Origin: Deltaproteobacteria bacterium
Lineage (GTDB): Bacteria; Myxococcota_A; UBA9160; PR03
Assembly (NCBI GenBank): GCA_035063765.1
Contig: JAPSFT010000001.1
Coordinates: 7,497-71,496 of the forward strand
Direction of reading: 5' to 3'
Length of the DNA stretch: 64,000 bases
The translations under genes were made by a program, and so were the position numbers. The notes beneath the pieces were generated by a model. It was not told the DNA's origin, did not search any database, and saw only the letters and a program-made list of their open reading frames with translations. Shown here piece by piece: positions 4,806 through 47,521 of this stretch; position 1 is the first letter of the stretch; every line of letters begins with the position of its first letter.

Positions 4806-5249
4806 ATGACGAGGATGCGCCGCGACGGGCGCGTGAGCGCCGGCCTGCTGCTCGGGATCCTCCTGGTCCTCGCCGCGGCCGGCGCGTGGAACTACCGGCG
4901 CAATCTCGCTGCCGAGCAGGCCGAGCGCGCGAAGCGCCCGCTCGCAGGCTACACGACGGCGGATCTCGAAGCCCTGGCCGAGGCCTATCGTGCCGAGGTG
5001 GCCGAGCTCTCGAGCCGCTACGACGCGGCGCGCGGCCAGCGCGTTGCGACCGAGGAGCAGGGCTTCTTCGGCGAGCAGATCGACGAGTACGAGCGCGTGC
5101 GCCGCCGGAGCGGCCAGCGCCGCGAGGCCGGGGCCGAGCTCGGGCAGGGCGAGGCGGCGCTGCGCGACGTGGAGGCCGAGCTGCGCGCGCGCGGCGGCGA
5201 GGGCGGCTCCGCCTGGAGCGTGCACCTGCGCCGGCTCACGAGCTTCTAG
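4806..5249 (+). CDS. hypothetical membrane-anchored coiled-coil protein
   Basis: ATG at 4806 is in frame with ORF 3858..5249. It has one N-terminal TM helix (SAGLLLGILLVLAAAGAW) followed by a charged helical region. I recognise no family. Confidence 0.6.
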   Translation: MTRMRRDGRVSAGLLLGILLVLAAAGAWNYRRNLAAEQAERAKRPLAGYTTADLEALAEAYRAEVAELSSRYDAARGQRVATEEQGFFGEQIDEYERVRRRSGQRREAGAELGQGEAALRDVEAELRARGGEGGSAWSVHLRRLTSF

Positions 5250-9512: not shown

Positions 9513-9799
9513 GCCCCCACCTCCGCCGCTACACCCGTGCCAGCGCTGCACCCGGATCGGCGGATCGCCGAACACGCCTCTCGCGGGGCCGCGCCGTCCC
9601 CGAAACGGCCGGCAATCCCGCGGGTATAGCTCGCGGGGGCGTCCGATGCCCCCGCGCGGATCGGCCGCCATCCCTGCTCGAGCGATGCGGGTATCATCGG
9701 CCGCAGGCGCCAGCAGGAGACGGTGCCCCCGACGCTGCGGTTCCTGCTCCCCCGAGCCGCGCACCCACCGCGACGTCCCGACGAGAAGGAACCGAACCG

Positions 9800-10370: not shown

Positions 10371-11255
10371 CTAGGGCTGGCGCGGCGTCTGGTACTCGAT
10401 GCCGATCCGGCCGAGCCGGATCTTGAACTCCTTCAGCACCGTGTCGGCCAGCACGCGCTCCATGTCCTCGGGCTGCATCGTCGCGAGGTCGACGCCCTGG
10501 TACTGCGCCTTGGCGCGCGGGAGGCCGGCCTCGGCCTCGAGGCGGTCCATCTCGGCCGCCATCGGGTTGTTCCGGAACGAGTCCGCGAAGGTGGCGAGCA
10601 TGTAGTAGGACATGTCCTTCTGCATGCGCTCGATCTCGGCCTTCTTCTCGGGCTGCTCGCGGATCAGCGACCCGATCCGGTTCTCGCCGAAGCCCACGTG
10701 GCGGCGCTCGTCGGCGATGGTGCCGGCGAGGGTGCGCGCGAACTTCGGGTTCATGTCGTTCGAGAGCGCCTGCATCATCTCGAAGACGCTGAAGGCCATG
10801 CCTTCGAGCACGATGTTCTGGCCGACCACGCCGGCCACGAAGTCCTTCTTGTCGACCTTCTCGAGCAGGACCTCGGCGAACTTCACGAGGTTCGGGTTGG
10901 CGTACTGCTTGATCACGTCCTCGAGGTCGTTCTTCTTGACCCCGAGGTCGTAGAGGCGCTGCGTGAAGATCTCGACGTGGCGGGCCTCGTCGAGGGTCTG
11001 GGTTGCGAGGAAGCGCTTGCTCGCCTCGTCGGGAGCGGCGTTGATGAGGCCCGAGGAGGCCGCGAGCGCACAGCGCTCGCCGGCGACGAGCTGCACCGTG
11101 GTGCGGATCGTCTCGGTGAGCAGCACCTCGTTGTCGAGGATCACCTCGGGCTCCTTCTGGCCCGGCTCGTGCCCGAACTCGGTGTTCGTCAGGTAGCCCT
11201 GGGGACAGGATTCGAGCCAGTGCTGGACCGAATACATCGAGAGGAAGTCGGACAT
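10371..11255 (-). CDS. ferritin-like class II di-iron carboxylate protein (two DExRH motifs)
   Basis: 294-aa ORF with LDEARHVE and ADERRHVG (DExRH twice), plus VLEGMAF. It has a duplicated AAGGAG Shine-Dalgarno and a non-junk amino-acid composition. Confidence 0.75.
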   Translation of the reverse strand: MSDFLSMYSVQHWLESCPQGYLTNTEFGHEPGQKEPEVILDNEVLLTETIRTTVQLVAGERCALAASSGLINAAPDEASKRFLATQTLDEARHVEIFTQRLYDLGVKKNDLEDVIKQYANPNLVKFAEVLLEKVDKKDFVAGVVGQNIVLEGMAFSVFEMMQALSNDMNPKFARTLAGTIADERRHVGFGENRIGSLIREQPEKKAEIERMQKDMSYYMLATFADSFRNNPMAAEMDRLEAEAGLPRAKAQYQGVDLATMQPEDMERVLADTVLKEFKIRLGRIGIEYQTPRQP

Positions 11256-11282
11256 GACGCTCCTTGCTCCTTGGGCGCTCGA

Positions 11283-11298
11283 CGGACCGATCGGTCCG
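11283..11298. promoter_or_regulatory. perfect 16-bp palindrome CGGACCGATCGGTCCG just upstream of the Shine-Dalgarno of the di-iron protein gene
   Basis: Read directly from the sequence. It lies 28 nt upstream of ATG 11255 (minus-strand gene). Confidence 0.35.
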
Positions 11299-11321
11299 CC
11301 GGTGGGCCGAATGTAGCAAGG

Positions 11322-11349
11322 AAAAAGGCCGCCGCCCGACCGGTCGGCC
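11322..11349 (-). terminator. intrinsic terminator after the cyt-b/molybdoenzyme gene
   Basis: The minus strand reads GGCCGaCCG-gtcggg-CGGCGGCC followed directly by TTTTT. That is an 8-bp GC stem with one bulge and a 6-nt loop. Confidence 0.55.
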
Positions 11350-11358
11350 GGGAGTGGA

Positions 11359-13089
11359 TCAGATCGGGGCCCGGTAGCCGTAGAACTCGTGGTCCTCGTT
11401 GTAGCCGCCCTGCCCTGCCCCGAGGTGCCGGAAGTCCGCCACCAGCTCGATCGCCTCGATCCACTTCACCTGCTTGAAGCCGAGCTCGTTCTCGCAGCGC
11501 AGCCGGAGGGGCGCCCCGTGGGTGACCCCGAGGGGCCGCCCGTTCATCTCGTAGGCGAGGAGGGTCAGGAAGTGGCCCATGTTCGCGAGCGAGTGGACGT
11601 CGTAGTAGCGGCCGCCCTCGGAGCCCAAGGCGAGGGAGTAGAAGACGGCGAAGCGGGCCCCGGGGAGGGGACGCACGAGGCGCAGGACCTCCCGGACCGG
11701 GACGCCGCCCCAGCGGGCGACGCCCGACCAGCCCTGGATGCAGAAGTGCGCGGTGATCTGCTCCTGCTTCGGCAGCGCTCGGAGCTCGGCGAGCGAGAGC
11801 TCCCGGGGAGCCTCCACGAGCCCGTCCACCCGCAGCCGGTAGCTCGCGAAGCGATCGCGCAGGAGGGCGTCGTAGGCGGGTGAGCTCGGGGGCGTGCCGT
11901 TCACCCAGAGATGGGGCGAGACCTCGGACTCGCGGTAGCGGGTCGTCACGTCCCACCACTCGCCGAGGGCCGCGAGCCACCCGACCAGCCGCTGCCCCCC
12001 CTGCTGGACCCGCCTCGGGTAGCGGAGGGTCAAGGGGGATGCTGCCAGCCAGACCAGCAGCACGGCTCCCATGGCCAGCGCGAAGAGCAAGAGGCCGGCC
12101 GGGCTCGCGTCGTTCCGCCCTGCGAACATGTGGTTCAGGTTGTGTCGCAGCCCGGTGACGAAGACCATCGTGACGTGCACGCACACGAAGAGCACGAACC
12201 AGCACAGCACCAGGAAGTGGAGCGAGCGGGCGGCCTGGCGGTTCGCGGCCCGCCCGGAGCGGCCGAGCTTGTTCGCGATGGCCGGCGCCTGGAGGAGGCC
12301 GGTCACGATCGCCAGCGGTGCGGCGACGAACACCGTCACGAAGTAGGCGAGCTTCTGGAGGGCGTTGAAGGCGACCCATCCGTCGTTGGGCGGCAGCTCG
12401 AGCGACAGGTACTGGAGGGCCGTCGAGAGCGCGTTCGGGAAGATCTCCCAGGAGGTCGGCACGAGCCGCTGCCACTGGTGGGTGGCGAAGAGGAGCAGGT
12501 AGAAGACCGCTCCGTTCACGATCCACAGCAGGTCGAAGGAGAAGTGCCACCAGCGCGCCAGCCCGATCGAGTGGCGGATGCCGGGAATGCCCAGCCAGCC
12601 GGGGAGCGTCACGGAGTCGTCCTTGGCGGTCCAGAGCCGATCCTTCGGCACCTCGTGCTGGAAGCGGAACCACTCGCTCCCGGGCGTGCAATCGCGGTTC
12701 CAGTACAGGCGCGGGTGGTCGGCCAGGATCTGGAGACCGGCGCGGGCGATGAGCGTCAGGAAGAGCAGGTTCAGGAAGTGCTGCGCGCGCAGCCACGCGG
12801 GATAGCCCGCGGAGTCGGCCCGCACCGAGCGAACGGTGCCCGGATAGCGGGCGAGGAACGCCTGCACGGGCGCGAGCTCGCGGAGCTCCTGGCCGACCGC
12901 GATCGCGACGAGGAGGACCAGGCCGCCGAGCGGGATCAGCCAGAAGACACCGAACCAGCGGCCTCCGATCCGGACGTGGGGCAGCGTGCCCGACCGGGGC
13001 GGGATCCAGCGGTCGAGCCGGAGCCGGTCGTCAGCGGGCGCGAGCGCCGCCTCGAGGGGATCGGATCGCGGGGGTCCGTCTCGTTCCAT
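11359..13089 (-). CDS. fused cytochrome b (b561/Ni-hydrogenase cyt-b type) membrane domain and molybdopterin-dependent oxidoreductase (YedY/MsrP, sulfite-oxidase fold)
   Basis: The N-terminal part is multi-TM with conserved His (HFLNLLFLTLIARAG, RWWHFSFDLLWIV, HFLVLCWFVLFVCVHV). The C-terminal part reads ITAHFCIQGWSGVARWGGVPVREVL ... HGAPLRLRCENELGFKQVKWI. Confidence 0.8.
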   Translation of the reverse strand: MERDGPPRSDPLEAALAPADDRLRLDRWIPPRSGTLPHVRIGGRWFGVFWLIPLGGLVLLVAIAVGQELRELAPVQAFLARYPGTVRSVRADSAGYPAWLRAQHFLNLLFLTLIARAGLQILADHPRLYWNRDCTPGSEWFRFQHEVPKDRLWTAKDDSVTLPGWLGIPGIRHSIGLARWWHFSFDLLWIVNGAVFYLLLFATHQWQRLVPTSWEIFPNALSTALQYLSLELPPNDGWVAFNALQKLAYFVTVFVAAPLAIVTGLLQAPAIANKLGRSGRAANRQAARSLHFLVLCWFVLFVCVHVTMVFVTGLRHNLNHMFAGRNDASPAGLLLFALAMGAVLLVWLAASPLTLRYPRRVQQGGQRLVGWLAALGEWWDVTTRYRESEVSPHLWVNGTPPSSPAYDALLRDRFASYRLRVDGLVEAPRELSLAELRALPKQEQITAHFCIQGWSGVARWGGVPVREVLRLVRPLPGARFAVFYSLALGSEGGRYYDVHSLANMGHFLTLLAYEMNGRPLGVTHGAPLRLRCENELGFKQVKWIEAIELVADFRHLGAGQGGYNEDHEFYGYRAPI

Positions 13090-33639: not shown

Positions 33640-36168
33640 TCAGCCGGACGAAGCAGCCAGCGCGAGGGCGGCCTCGATGATCGCGAGGTGCGAGTAGGCC
33701 TGCGGCGTGTTGCCGAGCGAGAGCGTGGCGACGGGGTCGTACTGCTCGGAGAGCATGGCGGTCGGCCCCGCGCAGGCGGCCATCGCTTCGAAGAGCGCGC
33801 GGGCGTCGGAGCGGCGCCCGAGCGACAACAGGGCCTGCACGAGCCACGCGCTGCACAGGTGGAAGCCGCCCTCGCTGCCCGGCAGCCCGTCGTCCGCGCG
33901 ATAGCGGAAGACGGTCGGCCCCTCTCGCAGCCCCTGCTCCACCGCCTCCACCGTCGCGCGCCAGCGCGGGTCGGCTGCCGGCAGCAGGCCCGAGAGCCCG
34001 ACCGCGAGCGTGGCGGCGTCGAGGTCGCTGCCGTCGTAGGCCGCGGTGAAGGCGCCGGGCTGCTCCTTCCACCCGTGCTGCAGGACGTCCGCGGCGATGC
34101 GGTCCGCGAGCTCGCGCCAGTCGGCGCGCTCCCGGCCGTAGAGCTCGGCGATGCGCACGCCGCGATCGGCCGCGATCCAGCACATCACCTTCGAGTGCAG
34201 GTGGTGGCGCGGCGGGCGGCGGATCTCCCAGATCCCGTGATCCGGCTCCTGCCAGCGAGCGGCCACCGCCCCCACCAACCCCTCGACGAGCCGCCAGTGC
34301 TCCGAGGAGAGCGGCGCGTCGCGTTCGGCCAGCAGCGCCACCAGCTCGACGATCGGTCCGAACACGTCGAGCTGGAGCTGGTGGGCGGCCAGGTTCCCGA
34401 CCCGCACCGGGCGGCTGCCGCGATAGCCGGGCAGCTCGCCGATCTCGGCCTCCGAGCCGAGCGCTTCGCCCCCGACACCGTAGAGCGGCTGGAGTCGCTC
34501 GGGCGCAGCGATCCGGTCGACCACCGCGAGCACCCAGCCGAGGTAGTGGAGCGCTTCGCTCGTGCTGCCGAGCCGCACCAGCGCGGCCGCCGCGAGCGCG
34601 CCATCGCGGAGCCAGCAGTAGCGGTAGTCCCAGTTCCGGATCCCGCCCGGGTACTCGGGCAGGCTGGTCGTCGCGGCCGCGGCGATCGCGCCGGTCGGGC
34701 CGTGGCAGAGGGCCTTCAGCACGAGCGCACTGCGCCGGATCCGTTCGCCCCCCTCGCCTGGTACGACGAGGCCGCCGGCCCACGACGACCAGAACAGCTC
34801 CGTCTGGCGCTCGCGTTGCTCGGCCGGGGGCTGGCTCGCCCGCAGGCTGCCGGTTCCGTAGCGCAGCTCGAGCTCGATCGGCCCCGCGTCGAGGTCGAGC
34901 TCGGCGCGTGCAGTCTGGTGGGGGCCTTCGTCCGCGATCGTCCAGCGTACCCCCGGTGCCCGCAGCACGATCGGGTCGTTGCTCGGCTCGATCGCGAGCC
35001 CGCCGTCGAGCGCGCGCAGCCGGGTCGGGATGCGGCCGAAGTCGAGACGCGGTGCCAGCTCGACGCCGACCCGACCCTGCCCCTCGATGCGGCGCACGAG
35101 GTCGGTCCGACCCGCACGCAGATGGGGGCGACCGCCGGAGGCGTCGAGGAAGTCCACCACCCGGAAGCGTTGCCAGTGCGTCTCGAGCACGAAGGAGTCG
35201 CCGATCCAGCGCTGCCCGTGCGGGCGCTCGCCGTCGAGGGCCAGCACGGAGAAGTGTCCCGCGGCCGGGCCGCCGAGCAGCTCCGCGAAGAGTGCCGGCG
35301 AGTCGAGCCGCGGCAGACATAGCCAGGTGATCCGCGCGGCCGGCGTCACGAGCGCGAAGGTGCGCTGGTCGGAGAGGCAGGCATGGTCTTCGATCGGGAC
35401 CGCGCCAGCGCCCGCGAGCCACGCGGCGCGCAGCTCCGCGAGCTGCGCGAGCAGCCGCCCCACGGCCTCCGGATCCGGGATCCGCTGGATCGCGAGCGAG
35501 GAGCCTTCTCCGACCTTCACGGCCAGATCGGGCCCCGAGAGCGTCGCGAAGGCATCCTCGTCGGTGCGATCGTCGCCGACGAAGCAGACCGCGGTGGCGC
35601 CGACGCGCTGGCGGAGCTGGGCGAGCGCCATCCCCTTGTCGGTGGAGAGCACGGCCAGCTCGACCACCTTCTTGCCGTGGCGCGTGAACACGCCCTCGAG
35701 GGCGCCGGGGCCCTCCCGGACGGCGCGCAGCGCCTCCTGGGCGAGATCCTCGGGCGCCTCGCGGTAGTGGAAGGCCACGCTCGCGGGCTTCTCCTCGAGG
35801 CGTGCGCCCGGCAGGCGCGCGGCGATCCCCGCCAGGTCCTCGCGCACCCGCTGGCGCAGCGCGCGCGCCTCGTCCGGCAGCGAGCCCACGAAGTCCGGGT
35901 CGAACTCGCTGCCGTGGCTCCCGACCAGGTGCACGTCCTCGGGCTCACCGATCATGCCGGCCAGGTCGCGCAGCGCGCGGCCCGAGATCACCGCGACGTG
36001 GGTGTTGGCGAGACCCGCGAGCTGGCGCAGCGCCACCACCGACTCGCGCAGCGGCTGTGCCGCCGCCGGGTCCGGGACGATCGGCGCGAGCGTCCCGTCG
36101 TAGTCGGTCGCCACGAGGAGCACCGGCGTGCGGGCCAGCGCGGCGAGCCGGCGCTCGAGGTCGCTCAT
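33640..36168 (-). CDS. otsB: bifunctional trehalose-6-phosphate phosphatase (OtsB, HAD) fused to glycoside hydrolase family 15 (glucoamylase/trehalase-like) domain
   Basis: ATG at 36168 is in frame with ORF 33640..37470. The N-terminus reads LLVATDYDGTLAPIV ... GDDRTDEDAF. The C-terminal roughly 600 aa carry the GH15 pattern (NWDYRYCWLRDGA, LQLDVFG, WEIR, LSEQYDP). ATGA overlap with otsA. Confidence 0.88.
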   Translation of the reverse strand: MSDLERRLAALARTPVLLVATDYDGTLAPIVPDPAAAQPLRESVVALRQLAGLANTHVAVISGRALRDLAGMIGEPEDVHLVGSHGSEFDPDFVGSLPDEARALRQRVREDLAGIAARLPGARLEEKPASVAFHYREAPEDLAQEALRAVREGPGALEGVFTRHGKKVVELAVLSTDKGMALAQLRQRVGATAVCFVGDDRTDEDAFATLSGPDLAVKVGEGSSLAIQRIPDPEAVGRLLAQLAELRAAWLAGAGAVPIEDHACLSDQRTFALVTPAARITWLCLPRLDSPALFAELLGGPAAGHFSVLALDGERPHGQRWIGDSFVLETHWQRFRVVDFLDASGGRPHLRAGRTDLVRRIEGQGRVGVELAPRLDFGRIPTRLRALDGGLAIEPSNDPIVLRAPGVRWTIADEGPHQTARAELDLDAGPIELELRYGTGSLRASQPPAEQRERQTELFWSSWAGGLVVPGEGGERIRRSALVLKALCHGPTGAIAAAATTSLPEYPGGIRNWDYRYCWLRDGALAAAALVRLGSTSEALHYLGWVLAVVDRIAAPERLQPLYGVGGEALGSEAEIGELPGYRGSRPVRVGNLAAHQLQLDVFGPIVELVALLAERDAPLSSEHWRLVEGLVGAVAARWQEPDHGIWEIRRPPRHHLHSKVMCWIAADRGVRIAELYGRERADWRELADRIAADVLQHGWKEQPGAFTAAYDGSDLDAATLAVGLSGLLPAADPRWRATVEAVEQGLREGPTVFRYRADDGLPGSEGGFHLCSAWLVQALLSLGRRSDARALFEAMAACAGPTAMLSEQYDPVATLSLGNTPQAYSHLAIIEAALALAASSG

Positions 36169-37550
36169 CGCTCGAGCCCGGCCAGGAAGGAGCGCGCCCA
36201 GGCGTGGACGTCGTGCCGCGCGACGATCCGGCGCAGCGCCACCATGCGCCGCTCCTGCTCCGCCTCGGGCATCCCGACCGCCTCCACCATCGCGTCCTTG
36301 AGCCCCTCGACGTCGTAGGGGTTCACCTGGGACGCGCCGCGCAGCTCGTGCGCCGCACCCGTCATCTCCGACAGCATCAGCACGCCGCGCTCGTCGACGC
36401 GGGAGGCCACGTACTCCTTCGCGACCAGGTTCATGCCGTCGCGCACCGGTGTGACCAGCATCACGTCGGCGGTCCGGTACAGGGCGACCAGCTCGGGGAG
36501 CGAGAAGCTGCGGTGCAGATAGTGGACGGGGGCGCGGCCCACCTCGCCGAACTCCCCGTTGATCGAGCCCACCAGCCGCTCGACCTCGCTGCGCAGCGCC
36601 TGGTAGTCCTCCACCTCCTCGCGGCTCGGGACGGCCACCTGGACCAGCACGCACTGGCGCGGATCCAGGCGCTTCTCGCGCAGGAGCTCCTCGAAGGCCA
36701 GCAGCCGCACGTCGATGCCCTTCGTGTAGTCGAGCCGGTCGACGCCGAGCAGCACGCGCCGGGGGTGCCCGAGCCGGGCGCGGATCCCGGCGGCCATCCG
36801 GATCACCTCGGGGCTCTCGGCGACGCGCTCGAAGCGGGCCGTGTCGATCGAGATCGGGAAGGCCCCGAAGCGGCTCGCGTGGCCGTGGAGGCGCAGCTCG
36901 TCGCGCGCCCCCTCGGCACCCGCGTAGCGCCGGCACAGCACCGAGAAGTTGCGTGCGCCGACGACGGTCTGGAAGCCTACGACGTCGGCGCCCAGCAGAC
37001 CCTCCAGGATCTGGCGCCGCCACGGAAGCTGCGCGAAGAGCTCCTGGGGTGGGAAGGGGATGTGGAGGAAGAAGCCGATGCGCAGGTCCGGCCGCTGCTC
37101 GCGGATCATGAGGGGCACGAGCTGGAGGTGGTAGTCGTGCACCCAGACGATCGCGCCGGAGGCAGCCTCCTCGGTCGCGACCGCGGCGAAGATCCGGTTC
37201 ACCTCGACGTAGGCGGCCCACCAGGGCCGTTGGTACTGGGGAGGCCGCACGGCGTCGTGGTAGAGCGGCCAGAGCGTGCGATTGGAGAAGCCGTCGTAGT
37301 AGCGCTCGACCTGGCTGCGCGAGAGCGCTACCGGACGGAGCTGGATCCCCTGGCTCTCGAGTCGGCGCGGCGCGCTCGCGCCGCGGCCGGGCCAGCCGAC
37401 CCAGGTGCTCGAACGCTTGCGGAGGACCGGTCCGAGGGCGGAGACCAGGCCGCCCGGGCTCAGGTCCCACTCGTCCTCGCGGCCGCGCTGCGCGGTCACC
37501 GGAAGCCGATTCGAGACCACCACCAGCTCGCTACCCGCTCGTTTCGGCAC
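36165..37550 (-). CDS. otsA: alpha,alpha-trehalose-phosphate synthase (UDP-forming) OtsA
   Basis: 461-aa ORF with a GTG start. GT20 motifs are present: [41 protein letters not shown]. Confidence 0.95.
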
Positions 37551-37646
37551 TCGCCCGGTACGCTCCGTCGCAGACAGCCCGTCGCGAGCCCGAGCCTAGC
37601 GCCATCGAGGCGGACGCAAAGTCGCGCGAGCGCTATCCAACCGCGC

Positions 37647-38669: not shown

Positions 38670-39350
38670 TCAGCCCGGAGCGGTCTGGTGTACCAGCTCG
38701 CGCAGGCGTTCGGGCCGCAGGAGCACGATGCGGCGGTTGTCGCGCCCGATGAGCCCCTCGGCGGAGAGCTCGCGCAGGGTCTGGTTCACGGTCTGGCGGG
38801 TGGCTCCCACCAGCGTCGCGAGCTCGCTCTGGGTGATCGGGATGTCGATCACGCGGTGACCGTTCTCGGTCTGCCCGAAGTCGGCCGCGAGCTCCCCGAG
38901 CATGCGCGCGACGCGCGTGCGCACGTTGCGGAAGACCAGGTCCTCGACCCGGCTCTCGATCTTCTTGAGCCGATCGCCGATCTGGAGGCTCACCTGGAAG
39001 GCGAGCGCGGAGCGAGCCGCGAGCACCTGCTGGAAGTTCTCGCGCGGGATCTTCCAGACCGCCGACGCGCGCACCGCCTCGGCGAAGCTCTCGCGCGGAT
39101 ACTCGCCGAAGGCCGGCAGCTCCCCGAAGACCTCACCCGGCGCCACGTAGCCGAAGCTGGTCTCACCGCCTCCCTCCGAGAGACGATAGATCCGGGCGAG
39201 GCCAGCCTGCAGCAGGTACACCGACTGGGGCTGCCGGGTGGGCGCGAAGATCAGCTCGCCGCGCGCGAAGCGGCGCAGACTGGCACCCCGCTCGAGCTCC
39301 GCCAGCTCGTCGTCTTCCATCCGCGACAGCCACTCGATGGTGCGCATCAT
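38670..39350 (-). CDS. Crp/Fnr-family transcriptional regulator
   Basis: ATG at 39350 is in frame with ORF 38670..39821. It has a cNMP-binding-like barrel (GELIF ... VYLLQAGLARIY ... GEVFGE) and a C-terminal HTH (SELATLVGATRQTVNQTLREL). There is no N-terminal Fnr Cys cluster. Confidence 0.9.
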   Translation of the reverse strand: MMRTIEWLSRMEDDELAELERGASLRRFARGELIFAPTRQPQSVYLLQAGLARIYRLSEGGGETSFGYVAPGEVFGELPAFGEYPRESFAEAVRASAVWKIPRENFQQVLAARSALAFQVSLQIGDRLKKIESRVEDLVFRNVRTRVARMLGELAADFGQTENGHRVIDIPITQSELATLVGATRQTVNQTLRELSAEGLIGRDNRRIVLLRPERLRELVHQTAPG

Positions 39351-40018
39351 CCCCCCGCTCGGGGCGCCCTCGGCGCCCCTTCCTGGGATCCGCCCTCCGG
39401 CCGTTCCCGGGGCGGCGCCTCCGCCCCGGGAGCCTCGCGAGACGCTGCGTCCGGCGACCGCCAGACCCGCTCGCGCAGCGACTCGAACTCGCGGGTCAGG
39501 AAGTCGGCCACGTCGCGGCCCGCACGCTCCACCGAGGAGCGCAGCTCGGTGAGCGTCTCCTCCATCTCCACGCGCCGGCGCTCGCGCTGCCCGCGCCGGC
39601 GTCCGCTCTCGACGGCGCGCCGCGCCGCCTCGCCGAGGTCGTCGAGCTCCCGGCCGAGCTCGACCACGAGGTCGTCGAGGGTGACCAGGCCCGAGAGGCG
39701 GCCGTCGCGCAGCACCACGATGCGGCGCACGCGGGCCGTGCGCATGCGCTCCACCACGACTTCGATCGGGTCGTCGGCGCTCACCGTGACGAGCGGGCGG
39801 CTCATCAGCTCCGCGGCGCACTGCTTCTCGGCGCCAGCGCGGGCGACCACGCGGCAGGCGAGATCGCGATCGGTGACGATGCCCACCGGATGGTCCGCCT
39901 CGTCGACGATCACCACGCTGCCGACCGCGAAGTCGCCCATCAGCCCCGCAAGCTCGGCGGCGCTCGCGTCGAGCGGCGCGGTCGCGACCTCGGTGCGGTA
40001 GTAGTCACGCGTGCGCAT
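39347..40018 (-). CDS. CBS-pair protein with charged coiled-coil C-terminal extension (CBS-2)
   Basis: 223-aa ORF with two CBS motifs (VGIVTDRDL, GLVTLDDLV) followed by an Arg/Glu-rich helical tail. ATGA overlap with the crp start. Confidence 0.85.
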   Translation of the reverse strand: MRTRDYYRTEVATAPLDASAAELAGLMGDFAVGSVVIVDEADHPVGIVTDRDLACRVVARAGAEKQCAAELMSRPLVTVSADDPIEVVVERMRTARVRRIVVLRDGRLSGLVTLDDLVVELGRELDDLGEAARRAVESGRRRGQRERRRVEMEETLTELRSSVERAGRDVADFLTREFESLRERVWRSPDAASREAPGAEAPPRERPEGGSQEGAPRAPRAGG

Positions 40019-40021
40019 GGG

Positions 40022-40483
40022 TCACTTCCCTTCCGGCGCCGGACCGGGTCTTCCGGGGGACCGCTCCACGGGGGCCTGGGCCGCGGCCGCCGCGGCGACC
40101 CCCGCGAGCTCGCTCGCCACCAGACGCAGGATGTCGTCGGAGCTCAGGATGCCGACCAGCTCCTCGTCCGCGTTCACGATCGGGATCCGCCGTACGGACC
40201 GGCGCCGCATCAGGGCCGCGGCGGCGCGGAGCGACGACGTCTCGTGCATCACCAGGGGGTCGGTGCCGAACGCATCGACCACCCGCGTCGTGTCGGGGTC
40301 GAGTCCGTCGCGCAGCACGCGTAGCGCGAGGTCGCGATCGGTGACGATCGCGCGCGGGTGCGACCCGAGCAGCCCCACGAGGCACCCGACTCCCTCCTCC
40401 GCCATGCGCACGGCGGCGGCGCGCAGCGTGTCGCGCGCGTCGATCGTGCGGACGTCGCGCTGGCAGTAGTCGGCGATCGCCAC
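40022..40483 (-). CDS. CBS-pair protein (CBS-1)
   Basis: GTG at 40483 has GAAGGAGG 4 nt upstream and is in frame with ORF 40022..40603. CBS motifs are AIVTDRDLALRV and VGILSSDDILRL. It ends 3 nt before CBS-2. Confidence 0.85.
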   Translation of the reverse strand: MAIADYCQRDVRTIDARDTLRAAAVRMAEEGVGCLVGLLGSHPRAIVTDRDLALRVLRDGLDPDTTRVVDAFGTDPLVMHETSSLRAAAALMRRRSVRRIPIVNADEELVGILSSDDILRLVASELAGVAAAAAAQAPVERSPGRPGPAPEGK

Positions 40484-40524: not shown

Positions 40525-40540
40525 TGCAACCGCCATGCCC
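40525..40540 (-). promoter_or_regulatory. sigma-54-type (-24/-12) promoter candidate P1 for the CBS-1/CBS-2/crp operon
   Basis: The minus strand reads GGGCATGGCGGTTGCA, against the consensus TGGCAC-N5-TTGCW, with exact GG-N10-GC spacing. The predicted +1 is near 40514, 31 nt upstream of GTG 40483, with AGGAGG in between. Confidence 0.6.
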
Positions 40541-40666
40541 GTCTGCCCGTGAGCCCCGCGACGCCCTGGGTCGGCGGTTGTGGCGTTCTGGCGCATAGGA
40601 CATTGTCGGCGGGGCGACCTGTCGCGCTGGCCCTGGCGAGCCGGGTCACCGGCTCCCTCCCGCTCC

Positions 40667-40683
40667 GGGCATGGCTCGTGCAA
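40667..40683 (+). promoter_or_regulatory. sigma-54-type promoter candidate P2 for CBS-3
   Basis: The plus strand reads GGGCATGGCTCGTGCAA with exact GG-N10-GC spacing. It shares the GGGCATGGC core with P1. The predicted +1 is near 40693, 30 nt upstream of ATG 40723. Confidence 0.55.
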
Positions 40684-40722: not shown

Positions 40723-41160
40723 ATGCCCCTCTACGACCGTCCCGTCTCGACCATCATGCGCCGCGAGTTTGCGAGTCTGCACCCGGACGACCGCCTGGAC
40801 CTCGCGGAGCAGATGATGAAGGTCGGGCGCGTGCGCCACCTGCCGGTGCTGGGCCCGGACGGCCACGTGGTCGGCATCGTCTCGAGCCGCGACCTGCTCG
40901 AAGCCTCGCTCAGCAGCGTGCTCGATCTCGATCCCGCTTCGCGGCGCGGGTTCCTCCGCTCGGTGGCGGTCGCCGATGTGATGCGGCCGGAGGTCGAGAC
41001 GGTCGCGGAGAGCACGTCGCTGCTCGGCGCGGCGAGCCGGATGATCCGCCACAGGATCGGCTGCCTGCCGATCGTGGGCCCCGACGGTGTCATGACCGGA
41101 CTCGTCACCGAGACCGATCTGCTGATCGCGGCCTATCTCCCGGAGCCCGCTCCGCGCTAG
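40723..41160 (+). CDS. CBS-pair protein (CBS-3)
   Basis: ATG at 40723 is in frame with ORF 40549..41160. CBS motifs are VGIVSSRDLL and GLVTETDLL. Confidence 0.85.
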   Translation: MPLYDRPVSTIMRREFASLHPDDRLDLAEQMMKVGRVRHLPVLGPDGHVVGIVSSRDLLEASLSSVLDLDPASRRGFLRSVAVADVMRPEVETVAESTSLLGAASRMIRHRIGCLPIVGPDGVMTGLVTETDLLIAAYLPEPAPR

Positions 41161-41182: not shown

Positions 41183-41590
41183 TCAGCGATCGAGCGCGAG
41201 GCGCACGAAGTCGCCCTCGGTCAGGATGCCCACGAGCCTGCCCTTCGCGACCACCGGCAGGCAGCCGAGCTTGCGCTCCAGCATGATGCGTGCCGCCTCG
41301 ACCAACGCGGTGTCGGGCTCGACCGTCACCGGATCGTTGGTCATCACCTCCTTGACGAGCAACATGCCCATCACCTTCTGCTGCGCGTGCGCGCCGTAGC
41401 CGAGCGCACGCGCCAGCGCGCCCCGGAACAGGTCGCGCTGCGAGAGCACGCCGACCACCTCCCCCGTCGCCTCGTCGAGCACCGGCGTATGGCGGATGCG
41501 CCCGAGCCGCATCAGGTCGTCCGCGATCACGAGCTGGTCGTTGCGCAGGACGGTCGCCACCTCGGTGCTCATCACGTCACGGACCTTCAT
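41183..41590 (-). CDS. CBS-pair protein (CBS-4)
   Basis: 135-aa ORF with the strong SD GGAGGGAG. The sequence reads MKVRDVMSTEVATV ... VGVLSQRDLF ... VGILTEGDFV. Confidence 0.9.
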   Translation of the reverse strand: MKVRDVMSTEVATVLRNDQLVIADDLMRLGRIRHTPVLDEATGEVVGVLSQRDLFRGALARALGYGAHAQQKVMGMLLVKEVMTNDPVTVEPDTALVEAARIMLERKLGCLPVVAKGRLVGILTEGDFVRLALDR

Positions 41591-41661
41591 CGAACTCCCT
41601 CCTCGTGCGCGCCGGACAACCCCTTGCTGCGCCTGGAGTGCAGGAGGATACTGGCTCGCTG

Positions 41662-42939
41662 GTGAAGGAAGGGCTCGACGACCGGCTCGACTACCTGGGG
41701 CTGACCGAGGACGATCGGCAGCTGCTCGCCCGCATCGGGCCGCTGCTCGAGCGCCACGCCGACCGCTTCGTCGCCGCCTTCTACCGCCACCTGCTCTCCT
41801 TCGACGAGACCCGGCGCCTGCTCGCCGACCCCGCGGTGACGGAACGCCTGCTGGGCAAGCAACGCGAGTACCTCCTGAGCCTCGCGACCCCCGGGCTCGA
41901 CGCGACCTACCTCGAGGAACGGATCCGGATCGGTGCCGTGCACGCCCAGGTCGGACTCGGCCCGCGCTACTACCTCGGTGCCTACGCGCTCTACTTCTCG
42001 CTGCTGGCGCCGGTGATCGCCTCCGATTGCGAGGGCGACACGGAGCTCGTCCAGCGCACCTTGAGTGCCCTCGTCAAGGTGCTGTTGCTCGACGCCGAGC
42101 TCGCGATGGAGTCCTACGTGGAGCGCCACGGGGAAGGGCTCACCCACCTGAACCGGGAGCTCGCCGCCGTGAGCCGCTCGCTCTCGCGCGAGGTCGAGGT
42201 CCAGGAGCAGGAGCTCCGGCAGACCCAGAAGCGCGCACGCGCCGCCGAGGACCTGGCGTCGGTCGCGACGCTCGTGGCGGGGCTCGCCCACGAGATCGGT
42301 ACGCCGATGGGGGTGATCCGTGGCCATGCGGAGGCGCTCGGCGGCGCGGTCCAGGGCGAACGGGCGCAATGGCGGCTGCGCACGATCCTGGAGCAGATCG
42401 ACCGCATCTCGAGCATCATCCGCGCGCTGCTCGACGTCGCGCGGCCACGCGAGCGCGTCCTGGTGCCGATCGAGCTCCCACAGGTGCTGGACAACGCGCT
42501 CGCCTTCCTGTCCGAGCGGATGCGGCGCCACGGGATCGAGATCGAGCGCCGCTACGACCGGGTGCCGGTGATCCACGGGGATCCCGACAAGCTCCAGCAG
42601 CTGTTCCTGAACCTGTTCCTGAACGCGGCCGACGCGATGCCCGACGGTGGACACCTTATCGTGTCGGTCGCGGCCTCGGATGGCCAGGCGGTCGGGATCC
42701 GGATCGCCGACGACGGCGTCGGCATCCCCGCCGCCGACCTCGAGAACCTGTTCACGCCCTTCTTCACGACCAAGCCGGCAGGCCGCGGCAGCGGACTCGG
42801 GCTGGTGGTCGCCCAGGGCATCGTCGCCGATCACGGCGGGCGCATCGAGGTGCTCAGCGCCCCCGGCCGCGGCACCGAGTTCGTGATCGAGCTGCCGCTG
42901 CGCGCTCAAACCGGGCCGGAGGGGCGGATCGGATCGTAG
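41662..42939 (+). CDS. globin-coupled sensor histidine kinase (protoglobin sensor + HisKA + HATPase_c)
   Basis: The N-terminal globin-coupled-sensor pattern reads LDYLGLTEDDRQLLARIGPLLERHADRFVAAFYRHL ... RIGAVHAQVGLGPRYYLGAY, giving a distal Tyr and a proximal His context. The H-box is LAHEIGTP, and N/G boxes are present (NLFLNAADAM, DDGVGI, GSGLGL). I prefer GTG 41662 as the start; the ORF-track start is GTG 41605. Confidence 0.85.
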   Translation: MKEGLDDRLDYLGLTEDDRQLLARIGPLLERHADRFVAAFYRHLLSFDETRRLLADPAVTERLLGKQREYLLSLATPGLDATYLEERIRIGAVHAQVGLGPRYYLGAYALYFSLLAPVIASDCEGDTELVQRTLSALVKVLLLDAELAMESYVERHGEGLTHLNRELAAVSRSLSREVEVQEQELRQTQKRARAAEDLASVATLVAGLAHEIGTPMGVIRGHAEALGGAVQGERAQWRLRTILEQIDRISSIIRALLDVARPRERVLVPIELPQVLDNALAFLSERMRRHGIEIERRYDRVPVIHGDPDKLQQLFLNLFLNAADAMPDGGHLIVSVAASDGQAVGIRIADDGVGIPAADLENLFTPFFTTKPAGRGSGLGLVVAQGIVADHGGRIEVLSAPGRGTEFVIELPLRAQTGPEGRIGS

Positions 42940-43334
42940 GCGCGGCGCAGGAGGTCGCTCTCGGTGAGCAGGCCGACCAGCCGCGGGCCGTCCGGGCCGG
43001 GCTCGACGATCGGCAGGCAGCCCGTGCGCGAGCGGGCGATCCGCGCCGCCGCCTCGTCGACGCTCATCGTGGTCCCGCCCGTCTCGGTGTCCGGCGACAT
43101 CACCTCTTCGACGCGCGTGCAGCGGCCGGCAAGGGCGGCCTCGACGAGGACCGCGAACGAGAGCACGCCGCGCAGGACCCCGTCGGCCACCACCGGGAGC
43201 TGGCGCAGGCGCGCCACCCGCATCATCTGGAGCGTCTCCGCGATCGAGGCACCCGGTGCGACGGAGAGCCAATGCCGCCGCATCACCCGAGCCACTTCGG
43301 CCCCGAACGTCCCCGTGCTTCCCTCGAACCCCAT
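42906..43334 (-). CDS. CBS-pair protein (CBS-5)
   Basis: 142-aa ORF with the motifs RGVLSFAVL and VGLLTESDLL. It overlaps the 3' end of the convergent kinase gene by 34 nt. Confidence 0.8.
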   Translation of the reverse strand: MGFEGSTGTFGAEVARVMRRHWLSVAPGASIAETLQMMRVARLRQLPVVADGVLRGVLSFAVLVEAALAGRCTRVEEVMSPDTETGGTTMSVDEAAARIARSRTGCLPIVEPGPDGPRLVGLLTESDLLRRAYDPIRPSGPV

Positions 43335-43346
43335 GCCGCCCGCAGG

Positions 43347-43362
43347 TGCAGACGGCGTGCCA
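43347..43362 (-). promoter_or_regulatory. sigma-54-type promoter candidate P3 for CBS-5
   Basis: The minus strand reads TGGCACGCCGTCTGCA with exact GG-N10-GC spacing. The predicted +1 is near 43336, only about 2 nt upstream of ATG 43334. Confidence 0.5.
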
Positions 43363-43472
43363 GCACCTCCCGGCGTCCCGGAGGCGGCGCGAGATCCAGA
43401 TCCGGGGCCTGATGCCTCGCTTCGTGTGCCAGGAGGGGTGCGATGCTGAGGCTGCGCGTCGTGAGCTGATTT

Positions 43473-43507
43473 GTCACATTCGGGTCATTTTGCCCTATAC
43501 GTGTGAC
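43473..43507. promoter_or_regulatory. inverted repeat GTCACA-N23-TGTGAC in the AT-richest patch between P3 and P4 (possible activator or Crp-type site)
   Basis: The sequence is gatTTGTCACAttcgggtcattttgccctatacgTGTGACctc. The arms are exact 6-mers. Confidence 0.3.
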
Positions 43508-43535
43508 CTCATCTGCAGCGCCCGTGCGTCGCGGG

Positions 43536-43551
43536 TGGCACGTAACGTGCT
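43536..43551 (+). promoter_or_regulatory. sigma-54-type promoter candidate P4 for the bEBP/USP/APH-P-loop/CBS-6 operon
   Basis: The plus strand reads TGGCACGTAACGTGCT with exact GG-N10-GC spacing. The predicted +1 is near 43562, about 4 nt upstream of ATG 43566. Confidence 0.55.
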
Positions 43552-43565
43552 CCTGGGATACCCCG

Positions 43566-44953
<1,388 letters not shown>

Positions 44954-44957
<4 letters not shown>

Positions 44958-45865
44958 GCCGCTTCCGGACGATCCTCGTCCCGACCGACTTCTCGGCCCA
45001 CGCGCACGCCGCGATCGAGCTGGCCCGCACGCTGGCTCACACAGGCGGCGGGGCGGTCCACCTGCTGCACGCCTACGAGGTGCCGCTCGGCACGATCTCG
45101 CCCTACGGCGTCGCGCTGCCCGACGGCCTGCTGGCGCAGGTGCGCGACGCAGCCGCGCGCCGGCTCGAGAAGGCGGCCCACGGCTTCGTCGAGGCGAAGG
45201 TCTCCTGCGAGACCCACGTCGCACACGGACCTGCCGCGGACGCGATCACCGAGGCGGCACAGCGCCTGCACGCCGACCTGGTCGTGATGGGCACGCGCGG
45301 GCTGAGCGGATGGAAGCACGCCCTGCTCGGCAGCGTGGCCGAACGCACCGTACGCAGCTCGCCCTGCCCCGTGCTGACCTTCCGTACGCCCGACCGCGCC
45401 GAAGGAGGATCCGTGGGCCACTTCCGCAAGCTCCTCGTGCCCCTCGACTTCTCGAAGCACTCCGACGCCGCCCTCGCGCTCGCGGTCGAGCTCGCGAGCG
45501 AGCACGCCGCCGAGGTCCACCTGCTCCATGCCTACGAGCTGCCCGCCGCCGTGACGATGGCCTACGGCGTCGCGATCCCCCAGGCGGTCTGGGACGGGGT
45601 CCAGGAAGCCGCCCTCGCGCGCCTCGAGGAGGGACGCAAGCGCCTCGAGGCGGCCGGCATCCGCGGCACCACGCACCTCGTGACGGGGCCCGCCGCAGAT
45701 GCCATCGCGCAAGCTGCCGAGAGCGTGGCTGCGGACCTGATCGTGATGGGCACCCGCGGCCTCACGGGGCTCAAGCACGTGCTGCTCGGCAGCGTCGCGG
45801 AGCGCACGATCCGCACCGCGCCCTGTCCCGTCCTCACGCTCAAGTCGGACGCGCAGGACGCCTGA
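44954..45865 (+). CDS. tandem universal stress protein (two UspA domains)
   Basis: GTG at 44954 overlaps the upstream stop (GTGA). There are two repeats of ILVPTDFS ... LLHAYE ... DLVVMGTRGLSG..H.LLGSVAERT.R...CPVLT. Confidence 0.9.
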
Positions 45866-45877
45866 CGGAGAGGCCGC

Positions 45878-47521
45878 ATGCCTCCCCCTGTCGAGCCGCT
45901 CCCCGCCGGGCTCGCTGCGGCGCTCGCGCGGCCGGCGGCACACCCCTTCGACGCGAGCGCTGCGGCGGGCGTCGAGCACGTCCAGACCCACCTCTCGCAC
46001 GTGTACCTGACGGGAGCGCGGGCCTGGAAGCTCCGCAAGGCCGCCGCGCTCGGCTTCGTCGACTTCGCGACGCGCGCGAAGCGCAATCGCGACTGCGCCC
46101 GCGAGGTCCGGCTCAACCGCCGCCTCGCACGCGACGTGTACCTGGGCGTCGCCCCGGTCGAGGCCGATCCCGCCGGCGGCTTCCGGATCGGTGCGCTCGC
46201 CCCGGACGCGGACGAGGAGACCCTGGCGCGCGACCCGCACGAACACGTGGTCGCGATGCGCCGGCTGCCGGCGGGGCACGACGCGCTCGCGCTCCTCGAG
46301 CGCGGCGCGCTCCACGCGCGCCACCTCGACGCGGTCGCCGAGCGGCTCGCCCGCTTCCACGCCGAGCACGGCCTCGGCGTCCCCGCGCCCTTCACACCCG
46401 ACGCCTGGCGCGCCCGGATCGAGGGCCCCGTGCGCGACAACCTGCGCCTGCTCGAGCCGGCCGCGGGCCGGCTCTTCCCGCGCTCGACCTGGCGCCAGGT
46501 CGAGCAGCGGACGAGCGCCTTCGCCGACGCCCACGCCGGCCGCTTCGAGGCGCGCCGCCGCGAGGGCCGCGCCGTCGACGGCCACGGCGACGTGCACCTC
46601 CAGCACGTCTGGTTCGAGCCGGGCCGCGCCGAGCCGCTGCTCGTCGACTGCATCGAGTTCCGCGACGACCTGCGTCGGATCGACGCCGCCTCCGAGGTGG
46701 CCTTCCTCGCGATGGACCTGCGCTACCGGCGCCGGGCGCAGCTCGCGGCGCGCTTCCTGCGCCGCTACGCGGCCGCCCGCGACGACTTCGGCCTCTACGG
46801 CGTGCTCGACTACTTCGTGAGCTACCGGGCCGCGGTGCGCGCGAAGGTGGCGGCGCTCGCCGCCGACGACGGCGCGATCGAGCCCGGCCAGCGCGCCGCC
46901 GCGGCGGCGAGCGCGCGCCGCCACCTCGCGCTCGCAGCGCGCGCCCTGGCGCCGCCGCGCGCGGGCGGGCTGGTGCTGGTCGGGGGCCTCGTCGGCAGCG
47001 GCAAGAGCAGCGTCGCCGAGACGATGGCCGACACCGCCGGAGGCGTCGTCGTCGCGTCGGACCGGGTGCGCAAGGCGCTCGCGGGGCTCGCTCCCACCGC
47101 GCGCGGCGGAGCCGCACGGGGCCTCTACGACAGCGCTGCGAAGGAGCGCGTCTACCAGGCGCTGCTCGAACGGGCGGAGCCGATCACGGCCTCGGGCCGG
47201 ATCGCGATCCTCGACGCCACCTACGCCCTCGAGCGCCACCGGGCGGCCGCGCTCGCCTGGGCGCGCGGGCGTGGGATCGAGCCGGTGCTCGTCGAGGCGC
47301 GCTGCCCGCACGAGACCACCCTCGCGCGCCTTGCGGCGCGCGCCGCCGCCGGCCGGGATCCCTCCGATGCCGGCCCGGAGCTGCTCGCCTGGAGCGAGCG
47401 CCACTACCAGCCGCCGCGCGCGGGCGTCATCGTCATCGAGACCCATCAGCCGGATTGGCGGACCCGGGCGCGTTCCCTCGCCCGCCGTCTGCACCCGACC
47501 CGGGAGCCAGCGGAGGAGTGA
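45878..47521 (+). CDS. aminoglycoside-phosphotransferase-like kinase domain fused to P-loop (AAA_33-type) kinase domain
   Basis: 547-aa ORF (SD GGAGAGG). The N-terminal APH-like catalytic loop is HGDVHLQHVW ... DCIEF. The C-terminal Walker A is GGLVGSGKSS. Confidence 0.8.
   Translation: MPPPVEPLPAGLAAALARPAAHPFDASAAAGVEHVQTHLSHVYLTGARAWKLRKAAALGFVDFATRAKRNRDCAREVRLNRRLARDVYLGVAPVEADPAGGFRIGALAPDADEETLARDPHEHVVAMRRLPAGHDALALLERGALHARHLDAVAERLARFHAEHGLGVPAPFTPDAWRARIEGPVRDNLRLLEPAAGRLFPRSTWRQVEQRTSAFADAHAGRFEARRREGRAVDGHGDVHLQHVWFEPGRAEPLLVDCIEFRDDLRRIDAASEVAFLAMDLRYRRRAQLAARFLRRYAAARDDFGLYGVLDYFVSYRAAVRAKVAALAADDGAIEPGQRAAAAASARRHLALAARALAPPRAGGLVLVGGLVGSGKSSVAETMADTAGGVVVASDRVRKALAGLAPTARGGAARGLYDSAAKERVYQALLERAEPITASGRIAILDATYALERHRAAALAWARGRGIEPVLVEARCPHETTLARLAARAAAGRDPSDAGPELLAWSERHYQPPRAGVIVIETHQPDWRTRARSLARRLHPTREPAEE

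Follow-up and report, generated by a model that had tools for sequence, protein, structure and literature searches.

Positions 43335-43565 of a 64-kb stretch of DNA from an uncultured organism (a metagenome-assembled genome (MAG) labelled Deltaproteobacteria/Myxococcota; the whole stretch is hereafter the window) form a 231-bp spacer between two divergent genes, one on the minus strand encoding a CBS-pair protein and one on the plus strand encoding an NtrC/ZraR-type activator of sigma-54-dependent transcription. From comparison with orthologous loci we conclude that this spacer probably controls transcription in both directions from two functional sigma-54 promoters, one directed at each gene, and that one enhancer probably drives both. 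Divergent pairs of sigma-54 promoters, and enhancer-binding proteins that activate their own genes, are already known, zraP-zraSR and NmpR being examples; what is new here is that both promoters keep a conserved position, 13-18 nt from the start codons. This near-leaderless geometry is genuine, is conserved on either side of the spacer and predicts transcripts that probably carry only ~0-6 nt before the AUG, leaderless or near so.

The two promoters and their conservation

The sigma-54 (-24/-12) promoter of the CBS-pair gene, TGGCACGCCGTCTGCA, occupies positions 43362..43347 on the minus strand with a predicted +1 at ~43336, and that of the activator gene, TGGCACGTAACGTGCT, positions 43536..43551 on the plus strand with a predicted +1 at ~43562. 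Both had been pointed out in an earlier reading of this DNA made without database searches (the sequence-only reading), and the positions and GG-N10-GC spacing it gave for the two motifs match the sequence. At each site the GG and GC dinucleotides, 10 nt apart, are set in a TGGCAC-N5-TTGCW context, and a search of both strands of the window for TGGCAC-N6-TGC returned exact matches at just these two promoters, against an expectation of 0.30 from shuffled sequence and with two or more matches reached in 3 of 100 shuffles. The top two matches in the window to TGGCACG-N4-TTGCW were likewise the two promoters, each agreeing at 11 of the 12 specified positions. They share one intergenic spacer, are oriented outward and end 13 and 15 nt ahead of the start codons. 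The sequence-only reading had also placed the AT-richest patch between them, and GC content does dip to 0.59-0.60 across 43400-43549 compared with 0.748 (74.8%) for the whole window. A scan of 42800-43700 for sigma-70 consensus promoters and terminators gave no match, and an Rfam scan of 42800-43800 gave no credible match, so that structured RNA is not the explanation.

Conservation was assessed across 12 loci, namely the window and 11 distinct orthologous loci from related uncultured Myxococcota, collected from contigs that carry close homologues of the activator (67-89% identity). A wider scan of genome and metagenome contig collections for the activator returned generic enhancer-binding proteins of no more than 52% identity, bar one truncated 72% match without upstream DNA, and was uninformative because the peptide patterns were saturated by the generic activator family. 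The gene order kinase (+), CBS (-), activator (+), universal stress protein (Usp) is conserved in eight of the orthologous loci, and the divergent CBS gene is absent from L171, L174 and L175. The activator-side promoter was found in 12/12 loci, the window included, with invariant columns that are exactly TGGCA.G and TGC (T21, G22, G23, C24, A25 and G27, then T33, G34 and C35 of the alignment), and the 20 nt upstream of it are unalignable across the same loci. On the other side, all nine loci possessing a divergent CBS gene have the promoter, with GGCA and TGCA invariant and unalignable flanks. Conservation is therefore selective for the -24 and -12 bases on both sides (12 and nine loci). Fixed -24/-12 blocks, between and around which the sequence varies freely, are the pattern of a sigma-54 promoter, and a palindromic operator would look different; that both motifs are real sigma-54 promoters is well supported by this conservation. 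Loss of the motifs in orthologous loci had been proposed as the finding that would tell against them, and they were kept in every locus that has the gene in question.

Distance from promoter to start codon

Transcription from sigma-54 promoters usually starts 11-13 nt past the GC. We measured the gap as the number of bases between the C of the GC and the start codon, and the predicted +1 takes that C as -12. In the window the gap is 13 nt to the CBS ATG at 43334 (minus strand) and 15 nt to the activator ATG at 43566 (plus strand), and the predicted +1 positions, 43336 and 43562, fall 2 and 4 nt ahead of these ATGs, as had been claimed. Activator-side gaps in the 12 loci are 15, 15, 16, 17, 17, 17, 16, 14, 13, 17, 14 and 16 nt (the range stated overall being 13-18 nt), and CBS-side gaps to an in-frame ATG, present in eight of nine loci, are 13, 14, 17, 14, 13, 14, 15 and 15 nt. 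The length of the CBS N-terminal extension, i.e. the part before the conserved ...VMRRHW, ranges between 7 and 26 codons, but the ATG remains 13-17 nt from the GC of the promoter, which ties the CBS start codon to the promoter and not to the protein body. At other intergenic sigma-54 promoters in these loci the gap is 20-61 nt, and a GGAGG ribosome-binding site is evident at several of them; another divergent pair of sigma-54-like sites in the window (the first pair, described below) has gaps of 42 and 41 nt; these longer gaps show that the short geometry is specific to the present pair and is not a habit of the lineage.

The start codons and the sequence ahead of them also differ from those of neighbouring genes. 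ATG is the start in 19 of 20 promoter-proximal cases compared with 62% of 94 neighbouring called genes (P ~9e-4), as is appropriate to leaderless mRNAs, on which non-AUG starts are inefficient. Pairing of the upstream 20 nt with the anti-Shine-Dalgarno sequence is weaker, with medians of -5.15 and -3.7 kcal/mol against -7.3 kcal/mol in 86 neighbouring genes (P=0.007). In the window and most of its closer relatives the values lie between -2 and -5.8 kcal/mol, L170 reaching -6.6 kcal/mol, and pairing is strong on the CBS side of L161. The ATG bias and the weak pairing would fit translation without a ribosome-binding site.

If a leaderless mRNA is defined by a transcription start site no more than 5 nt from the start codon, the geometry suggests a conserved class of sigma-54-dependent mRNAs, leaderless or with leaders of at most 6 nt, that would serve the master activator of a gas- or oxygen-responsive stress regulon and its divergent CBS partner in a Myxococcota gene family; we put this forward tentatively, at a little below an even chance. 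It may further be, and we are about equally hesitant here, that sigma-54 promoters of the same regulon outside this pair keep ordinary leaders with ribosome-binding sites. Searching the available literature for leaderless messages together with sigma-54 or RpoN returned no description of sigma-54-driven leaderless messages, and to our knowledge the known sigma-54 promoters all have ordinary leaders.

The CBS-pair gene (42906-43334, minus strand) encodes 142 aa from the ATG at 43334, with two stretches matching Pfam CBS. Database records disagree over its start, the window protein being listed at 142 aa and relatives of at least 90% identity (e.g. MEB2343154.1) at 125 aa, starting from Met18. 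The sequence-only reading had named an internal Met at 43283 as a possible start, rightly in so far as Met18 lies there in frame and serves as the start of these 125-aa versions. The promoter-proximal ATG is supported by its conserved in-frame position and by L167, where it yields a canonical CBS N-terminus, MHAVQDLM, and the CBS extensions carry a modest codon-position signal (GC1/2/3 of 0.76/0.65/0.80 over 127 codons).

The central dyad

Gibbs sampling over the 12 spacers identified a primary 17-bp dyad, TGAGCTGATTTGTCACA (43462-43478, no strand), as a candidate enhancer (upstream activating sequence, UAS), with the family consensus TGTGnC-N5-GnCACA. In 10 of the 12 loci the dyad is centred 66-69 nt upstream of the T that opens the activator-side TGGCAC; of the three loci that lack the CBS gene, two keep this distance and in the third it is 78 nt. 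The distance to the CBS-side promoter is variable (47-119 nt). The geometry, 5-N5-5, is shared with NtrC-family sites. When a matrix derived from the 12 primary sites was run on sigma-54 promoter regions outside the training set, dyads of at least 6.7 bits were found at 8 of 24 regions (7 distinct dyads) against ~0.9 expected. The dyad statistics overstate independence, since the matrix scores best on its own training regions and the loci are phylogenetically related, and to that extent this counts against the model. Examples of such dyads lie at 40579-40595 of the window (11.1 bits), at 787 and 1416 of L161 (15.3 and 13.0 bits), in L165 (11.7 bits) and in L167 (9.7 and 8.0 bits), and intragenic sigma-54-like strings score -3.8 to 3.7 bits. 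Fixed distance and recurrence at other sigma-54 promoters together make it likely that the dyad is an enhancer, and it is the likely candidate for that of the neighbouring activator. The suggestion that the activator is autoregulated gains from the fixed distance between dyad and activator promoter, which is kept also in loci without the CBS gene, and positive autoregulation is plausible.

The inverted repeat to which the sequence-only reading had drawn attention, GTCACA-N23-TGTGAC, is present as described (43473-43478 and 43502-43507, 23 nt apart) but is not conserved as a unit. Of its two arms the left one alone, GTCACA, belongs to a conserved element, forming the right half of the 43462-43478 dyad; the other, TGTGAC (43502-43507, no strand), is without counterpart in the orthologues, and the 17-mer from here scores 0.2 bits. 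There are 11 inverted pairs of at least 6 nt within these 236 nt, so that the repeat is not significant alone. A weak second dyad-like site, CGGGTCATTTTGCCCTA (43481-43497, no strand; 3.5 bits in the window), is assigned with low confidence. The best 17-mer lying 20-61 nt from the activator-side T is centred 47-50 nt away in 6 of the 12 loci (3.5-14.9 bits), L169 has a further weak 17-mer (0.8 bits) at 48 nt, and a weaker second activator site downstream of the primary dyad is possible.

A further string, TGTCACATT (43472-43480, plus strand), extends over the right half of the dyad and resembles an extended -10 element. Most loci have a TGn-[CT]A...T pattern here, with C instead of T opening the hexamer in almost every case, and a basal sigma-A-type promoter for the activator that overlaps the enhancer is speculative. 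A sigma-A -10 element directly upstream of the ATG, in the style of the leaderless pexR gene discussed below, was also considered and was rejected, no conserved hexamer being found there. In L170 a perfect palindrome with 7-bp arms, CATGGCA-N7-TGCCATG (4901-4921), lies over the right end of the primary dyad; as it fits GG-N10-GC on both strands, this pattern alone is unsafe for calling sigma-54 sites.

The activator, its operon and the neighbouring kinase

The activator gene (43566-44957, plus strand) encodes a 463-aa response regulator and sigma-54 activator of the NtrC/ZraR type in which Pfam REC, sigma-54-interaction AAA+ and HTH_8 account for all the domains of a bacterial enhancer-binding protein (bEBP), with the GAFTGA loop encoded at 44223. 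The sequence is listed by NCBI at the same length, and a relative of at least 90% identity comes from a MAG labelled Deltaproteobacteria. A GAFTGA-bearing AAA+ activator, encoded by the adjacent gene, and a conserved dyad as candidate upstream enhancer would supply what a sigma-54 promoter depends on. The N-terminus MTRLRSVLVVDDD had been judged correct, and in agreement with this all 12 orthologues open with M/V-x(3-6)-[VI]L-VVDDD right after the promoter. The Pfam receiver model begins at residue 7, and any downstream start would lose the acidic pocket, which favours the annotated start. An upstream in-frame GTG at 43503 was rejected as a start; it would put the promoter inside the gene, 6 of the 21 codons it adds end in A or T compared with a GC3 of 0.94 for the gene, and the orthologues have no conserved extension.

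A tandem universal stress protein gene (44954-45865, plus strand; two stretches matching Pfam Usp) overlaps the activator stop with its start (ATGA, 44954-44957) and probably shares the activator's operon. The gene after it, at 45878-47521, is AAA_33 kinase-like. The order activator-Usp is kept in all orthologous loci and AAA_33 comes next in most, which suggests that the three genes may form one autoregulated operon. Further neighbours across the orthologous loci are extra CBS genes, a ferritin-like di-iron operon, the AAA_33 kinase, cbb3 oxidase (FixO/COX1), FixS and a P-type ATPase.

Upstream of the activator operon and convergent with the CBS gene, positions 41605-42939 (plus strand) encode a globin-coupled histidine kinase (Pfam Protoglobin-HisKA-HATPase_c) whose synteny is conserved. 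Among solved structures its globin domain matches three globin sensors, 2w31, 1or4 and 5ohe, the best match of its kinase core is ZraS, and it is likely the sensor partner of the activator. The kinase and CBS genes overlap convergently by 34 nt (42906-42939), with no terminator-like site seen at this overlap, and CBS transcription, once induced, would continue through the kinase gene in antisense, a possible form of feedback. Convergent overlaps of 22-40 nt are kept in L161, L163, L165, L169, L170 and L172. On the other side of the kinase gene, 14 nt (41590-41605) separate its longest-open-reading-frame start from that of a CBS gene at 41183-41590 (minus strand); orthologous kinases are 420-463 aa long with spacers of 25-176 nt, and 41605 probably lies ahead of the true kinase start. 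The stretch 41590-41605 shows no strong sigma-54 motif, so that the kinase may use an ordinary promoter.

Comparison with known systems

In E. coli and Salmonella, ZraR (also HydG) drives the divergent sigma-54 promoters of zraP and zraSR and thereby regulates its own operon (PMC4987338). The window resembles this system in having two divergent sigma-54 promoters in a short spacer, one for a small accessory protein and one for the activator operon, so that sigma-54 promoters flank one spacer and one of them drives the activator gene. Its activator and ZraR share 46% identity along their full length, and its kinase core finds in ZraS the best match among solved structures. The E. coli spacer contains two inverted 17-bp dyads, GAGTAAAAATGACTC, of the same 5-N5-5 geometry, both flanked by the K-12 zraP/zraSR promoters TGGCACGGAAGATGCA and TGGCATGATTTCTGCT, although these dyads score merely 5-8 bits on the Myxococcota matrix. 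The E. coli gaps between GC and ATG are 36 and 32 nt (leaders of ~25 and ~21 nt, with a GGAGG before zraP) compared with 13 and 15 nt in the window. ZraS senses periplasmic zinc, whereas the sensor of the window is a cytoplasmic globin-coupled kinase, the gene for which lies upstream of and outside the activator operon, convergent with the CBS gene. The accessory gene, moreover, encodes a CBS-pair protein and not ZraP.

A second likeness is to NmpRSTU of Myxococcus xanthus, which couples a protoglobin histidine kinase to an NtrC-like activator (PMC11841059, PMC6211767). NmpR positively regulates its own operon, the first gene of which is a CBS-domain gene, via a sigma-54 promoter, and its oxygen regulon contains USP, cbb3 oxidase and P-type ATPase (PMC11841059). 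The window belongs to the same phylum, and its orthologous loci carry Usp, cbb3 (FixO/COX1), FixS and P-type ATPase genes. The CBS gene of the window is divergent from the activator gene, whilst that of M. xanthus comes first in the activator operon, and the globin domain is distant from AfGcHK, the NmpU homologue (E=1.6e-8). The NmpR site is GCGCA-N5-TGCGC, usually as two sites 14-15 bp apart upstream of the sigma-54 site (PMC11841059); it was not found in the window spacer with up to 2 mismatches, its GCA-N5-TGC core occurs in 0/12 spacers, and the sole 2-mismatch match is in L173. Among the neighbours in the locus there is no hybrid kinase or extra receiver of the kind used in the NmpU to NmpS to NmpR plus NmpT relay. 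Short leaders go unmentioned in the available part of the NmpR paper (PMC11841059).

The M. xanthus pexR-ahpC pair places a bEBP gene divergent from its sigma-54-dependent target, and pexR has been proposed to be transcribed from a sigma-A promoter as a leaderless message (≤5 nt; PMC12754779). A bEBP gene with a proposed leaderless mRNA and UASs overlapping a sigma-A-type promoter would be what the two have in common; PexR differs in being a GAF-domain bEBP, not a response regulator, and in its UAS, CACCG-N6-CGGTG. The window system thus appears to work like zraP-zraSR, NmpR and pexR, and is a strict member of none.

Proposed mechanism and alternative explanations

In the mechanism that we propose, the activator (43566-44957) would be phosphorylated by the neighbouring globin-coupled kinase on a gas signal (O2, NO or CO) and would bind the 17-bp dyad at 43462-43478, perhaps also the weaker site at 43481-43497. 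By DNA looping it would then remodel closed complexes of RNA polymerase and sigma-54 at both -24/-12 sites, turning on the divergent CBS-pair gene as well as its own gene and the downstream Usp gene (positive autoregulation). The resulting mRNAs, with ~0-6 nt before the AUG, would be translated without a Shine-Dalgarno site.

Several observations weigh against this model. The canonical +1 gives 2-6 nt before the AUG and not a true 5'-terminal AUG. NCBI/PGAP annotation of close relatives puts the CBS start at Met18, the N-terminal extension of the CBS protein shows little sequence conservation, and its codon-position signal is weaker than that of the gene body (GC1/2/3 of 0.78/0.52/0.93). The CBS side of L173 is without a promoter-proximal ATG, its start being a GTG 37 nt downstream behind GAGG. 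On the activator side of L171-L174, strong G-rich Shine-Dalgarno-like runs (GGAGGGAAGGAGGA, AGGAGAGG and GAGGGGGG; L171 4988-5000, L172 4989-5000, L173 4973-4988 and L174 5084-5096) with pairing of -8.6 to -11.9 kcal/mol lie between the -12 element and the ATG, and since an mRNA starting 11-13 nt after the GC cannot use them, they hint at additional, longer transcripts there. As regards sigma-54 itself, rpoN was not found in the 64-kb window; the L172 contig carries it (Sigma54_AID/CBD/DBD, 11217-11422) ~5 kb downstream of the activator orthologue and preceded by lptC, lptA-like and lptB-like genes, so that the lineage encodes sigma-54. Under one alternative the sigma-54 promoters would be real and expression not leaderless, the CBS protein starting at Met18 (43283) after a leader of ~50 nt and a longer transcript carrying the G-rich stretch as its ribosome-binding site. 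The Met18 annotation and the G-rich runs of L171-L174 speak for it, the extended -10-like string recurs at the same place in most loci, a purely sigma-54-driven, autoregulated activator needs a source of basal expression, and M. xanthus ahpC is a documented case of tandem sigma-A and sigma-54 promoters with UASs over the former (PMC12754779). On the other hand, the -10-like hexamer starts with C nearly everywhere and its place in the right half of the dyad accounts better for the string, the sigma-70 consensus scan was empty, no usable Shine-Dalgarno site occurs in the window and closer relatives (-2 to -5.7 kcal/mol in seven of them, besides the value given for L170), and none is consistently placed ahead of Met18. 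Were the in-frame ATG not used, its conservation at 13-17 nt alongside extensions as different as 7 and 26 codons would be hard to account for, and in L167 the proximal ATG yields the canonical MHAVQDLM. We consider ordinary leaders unlikely here.

The remaining alternatives concern the function of the dyad and of the motifs themselves. The dyad might be the operator of another regulator, e.g. the Crp/Fnr-family protein encoded at ~38670-39380, with the activator's enhancer lying elsewhere. Its half-sites, TGTGA/TCACA, are CRP-like, a Crp/Fnr-family gene is present in the window and near the L175 orthologue, and the sequence-only reading had itself suggested such a protein. The CRP consensus is TGTG-N8-CACA or TGTGA-N6-TCACA (a 16-bp core) and that of FNR is TTGAT-N4-ATCAA. 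The dyad has the form TGTGn-N7-nCACA in 12/12 loci, that is, TGTG-N9-CACA over 17 bp and one base wider than CRP sites, and so does not have CRP/FNR-type spacing. It tracks sigma-54 promoters instead, at a fixed distance in 10 of 12 loci and again at other sigma-54 promoters, and its 5-N5-5 geometry is found in the NmpR site (PMC11841059) and in the E. coli zraP-zraS dyads; on this evidence the Crp/Fnr suggestion was not upheld and a foreign operator is quite improbable. It is more improbable still that the motifs hold RNA polymerase-sigma-54 mainly as poised complexes or roadblocks that modulate outside transcription and do not serve the adjacent genes as promoters. In E. coli, sigma-54 commonly binds without productive transcription and within genes, according to the available part of one report (PMC4591121), and the sites overlap the 5' ends of both genes; but both are intergenic, outward and correctly oriented to their neighbours, an enhancer-like dyad is conserved at a typical distance with an activator gene next door, and the same layout is productive in zraP-zraSR (PMC4987338). 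As for chance matches in GC-rich DNA, pairs of matches did arise occasionally somewhere in the shuffled windows described above. The real ones face outward from one spacer, abut start codons and hold their consensus positions invariant in 9-12 loci amidst unalignable flanks, a degree of conservation by which we regard chance, the scarcely credible extreme among these explanations, as effectively refuted.

Should 5' ends confirm the predicted starts, leaderless expression would extend to enhancer-dependent transcription, linking the latter to Shine-Dalgarno-independent translation for the first responders of a regulon, and two inconsistently annotated start codons would be settled (142 versus 125 aa). 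A possible reason for such a link is that leaderless translation may be more robust under energy or oxygen limitation. Leadered and leaderless promoters would then coexist in one regulon, a natural system for asking why some genes dispense with ribosome-binding sites. The globin kinase, ZraR-like activator, CBS, Usp, ferritin-like and cbb3 genes make up a candidate oxygen/gas stress regulon in uncultured Myxococcota, of which TGTGnC-N5-GnCACA is the candidate enhancer motif.

Other sites and genes in the window

The first divergent sigma-54-like pair lies between two CBS genes and consists of GGGCATGGCGGTTGCA (40540..40525, minus strand) and GGGCATGGCTCGTGCA (40667..40682, plus strand). The related dyad TGTGGCGTTCTGGCGCA (40579-40595), already listed amongst the sites outside the training set, lies between the two, 47 and 80 nt from their -24 positions, a spacing that matches that of L161 (48 and 79 nt). 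The likely starts of the flanking genes are a GTG at 40483 behind GAAGGAGG and an ATG at 40723, and the gaps of this pair imply conventional leaders; the longest-open-reading-frame starts, 40603 and 40549, are probably wrong.

A further string, TGGCACGGGTGTAGCG (9527-9542, minus strand), lies 15 nt upstream of the ATG of a 304-codon open reading frame with a signal-peptide-like start and with GGAGG in the gap. It is probably a chance match, having a poor -12 element and no upstream dyad (best -3.8 bits). The Crp/Fnr-family gene of the window (cNMP_binding and HTH_Crp_2; 38670-39380, minus strand) adjoins a CBS gene at 39347-40018, a trehalose-6-phosphate synthase gene is found at 36165-37595, and L175 has near its activator the same gene pair as the Crp/Fnr region of the window.

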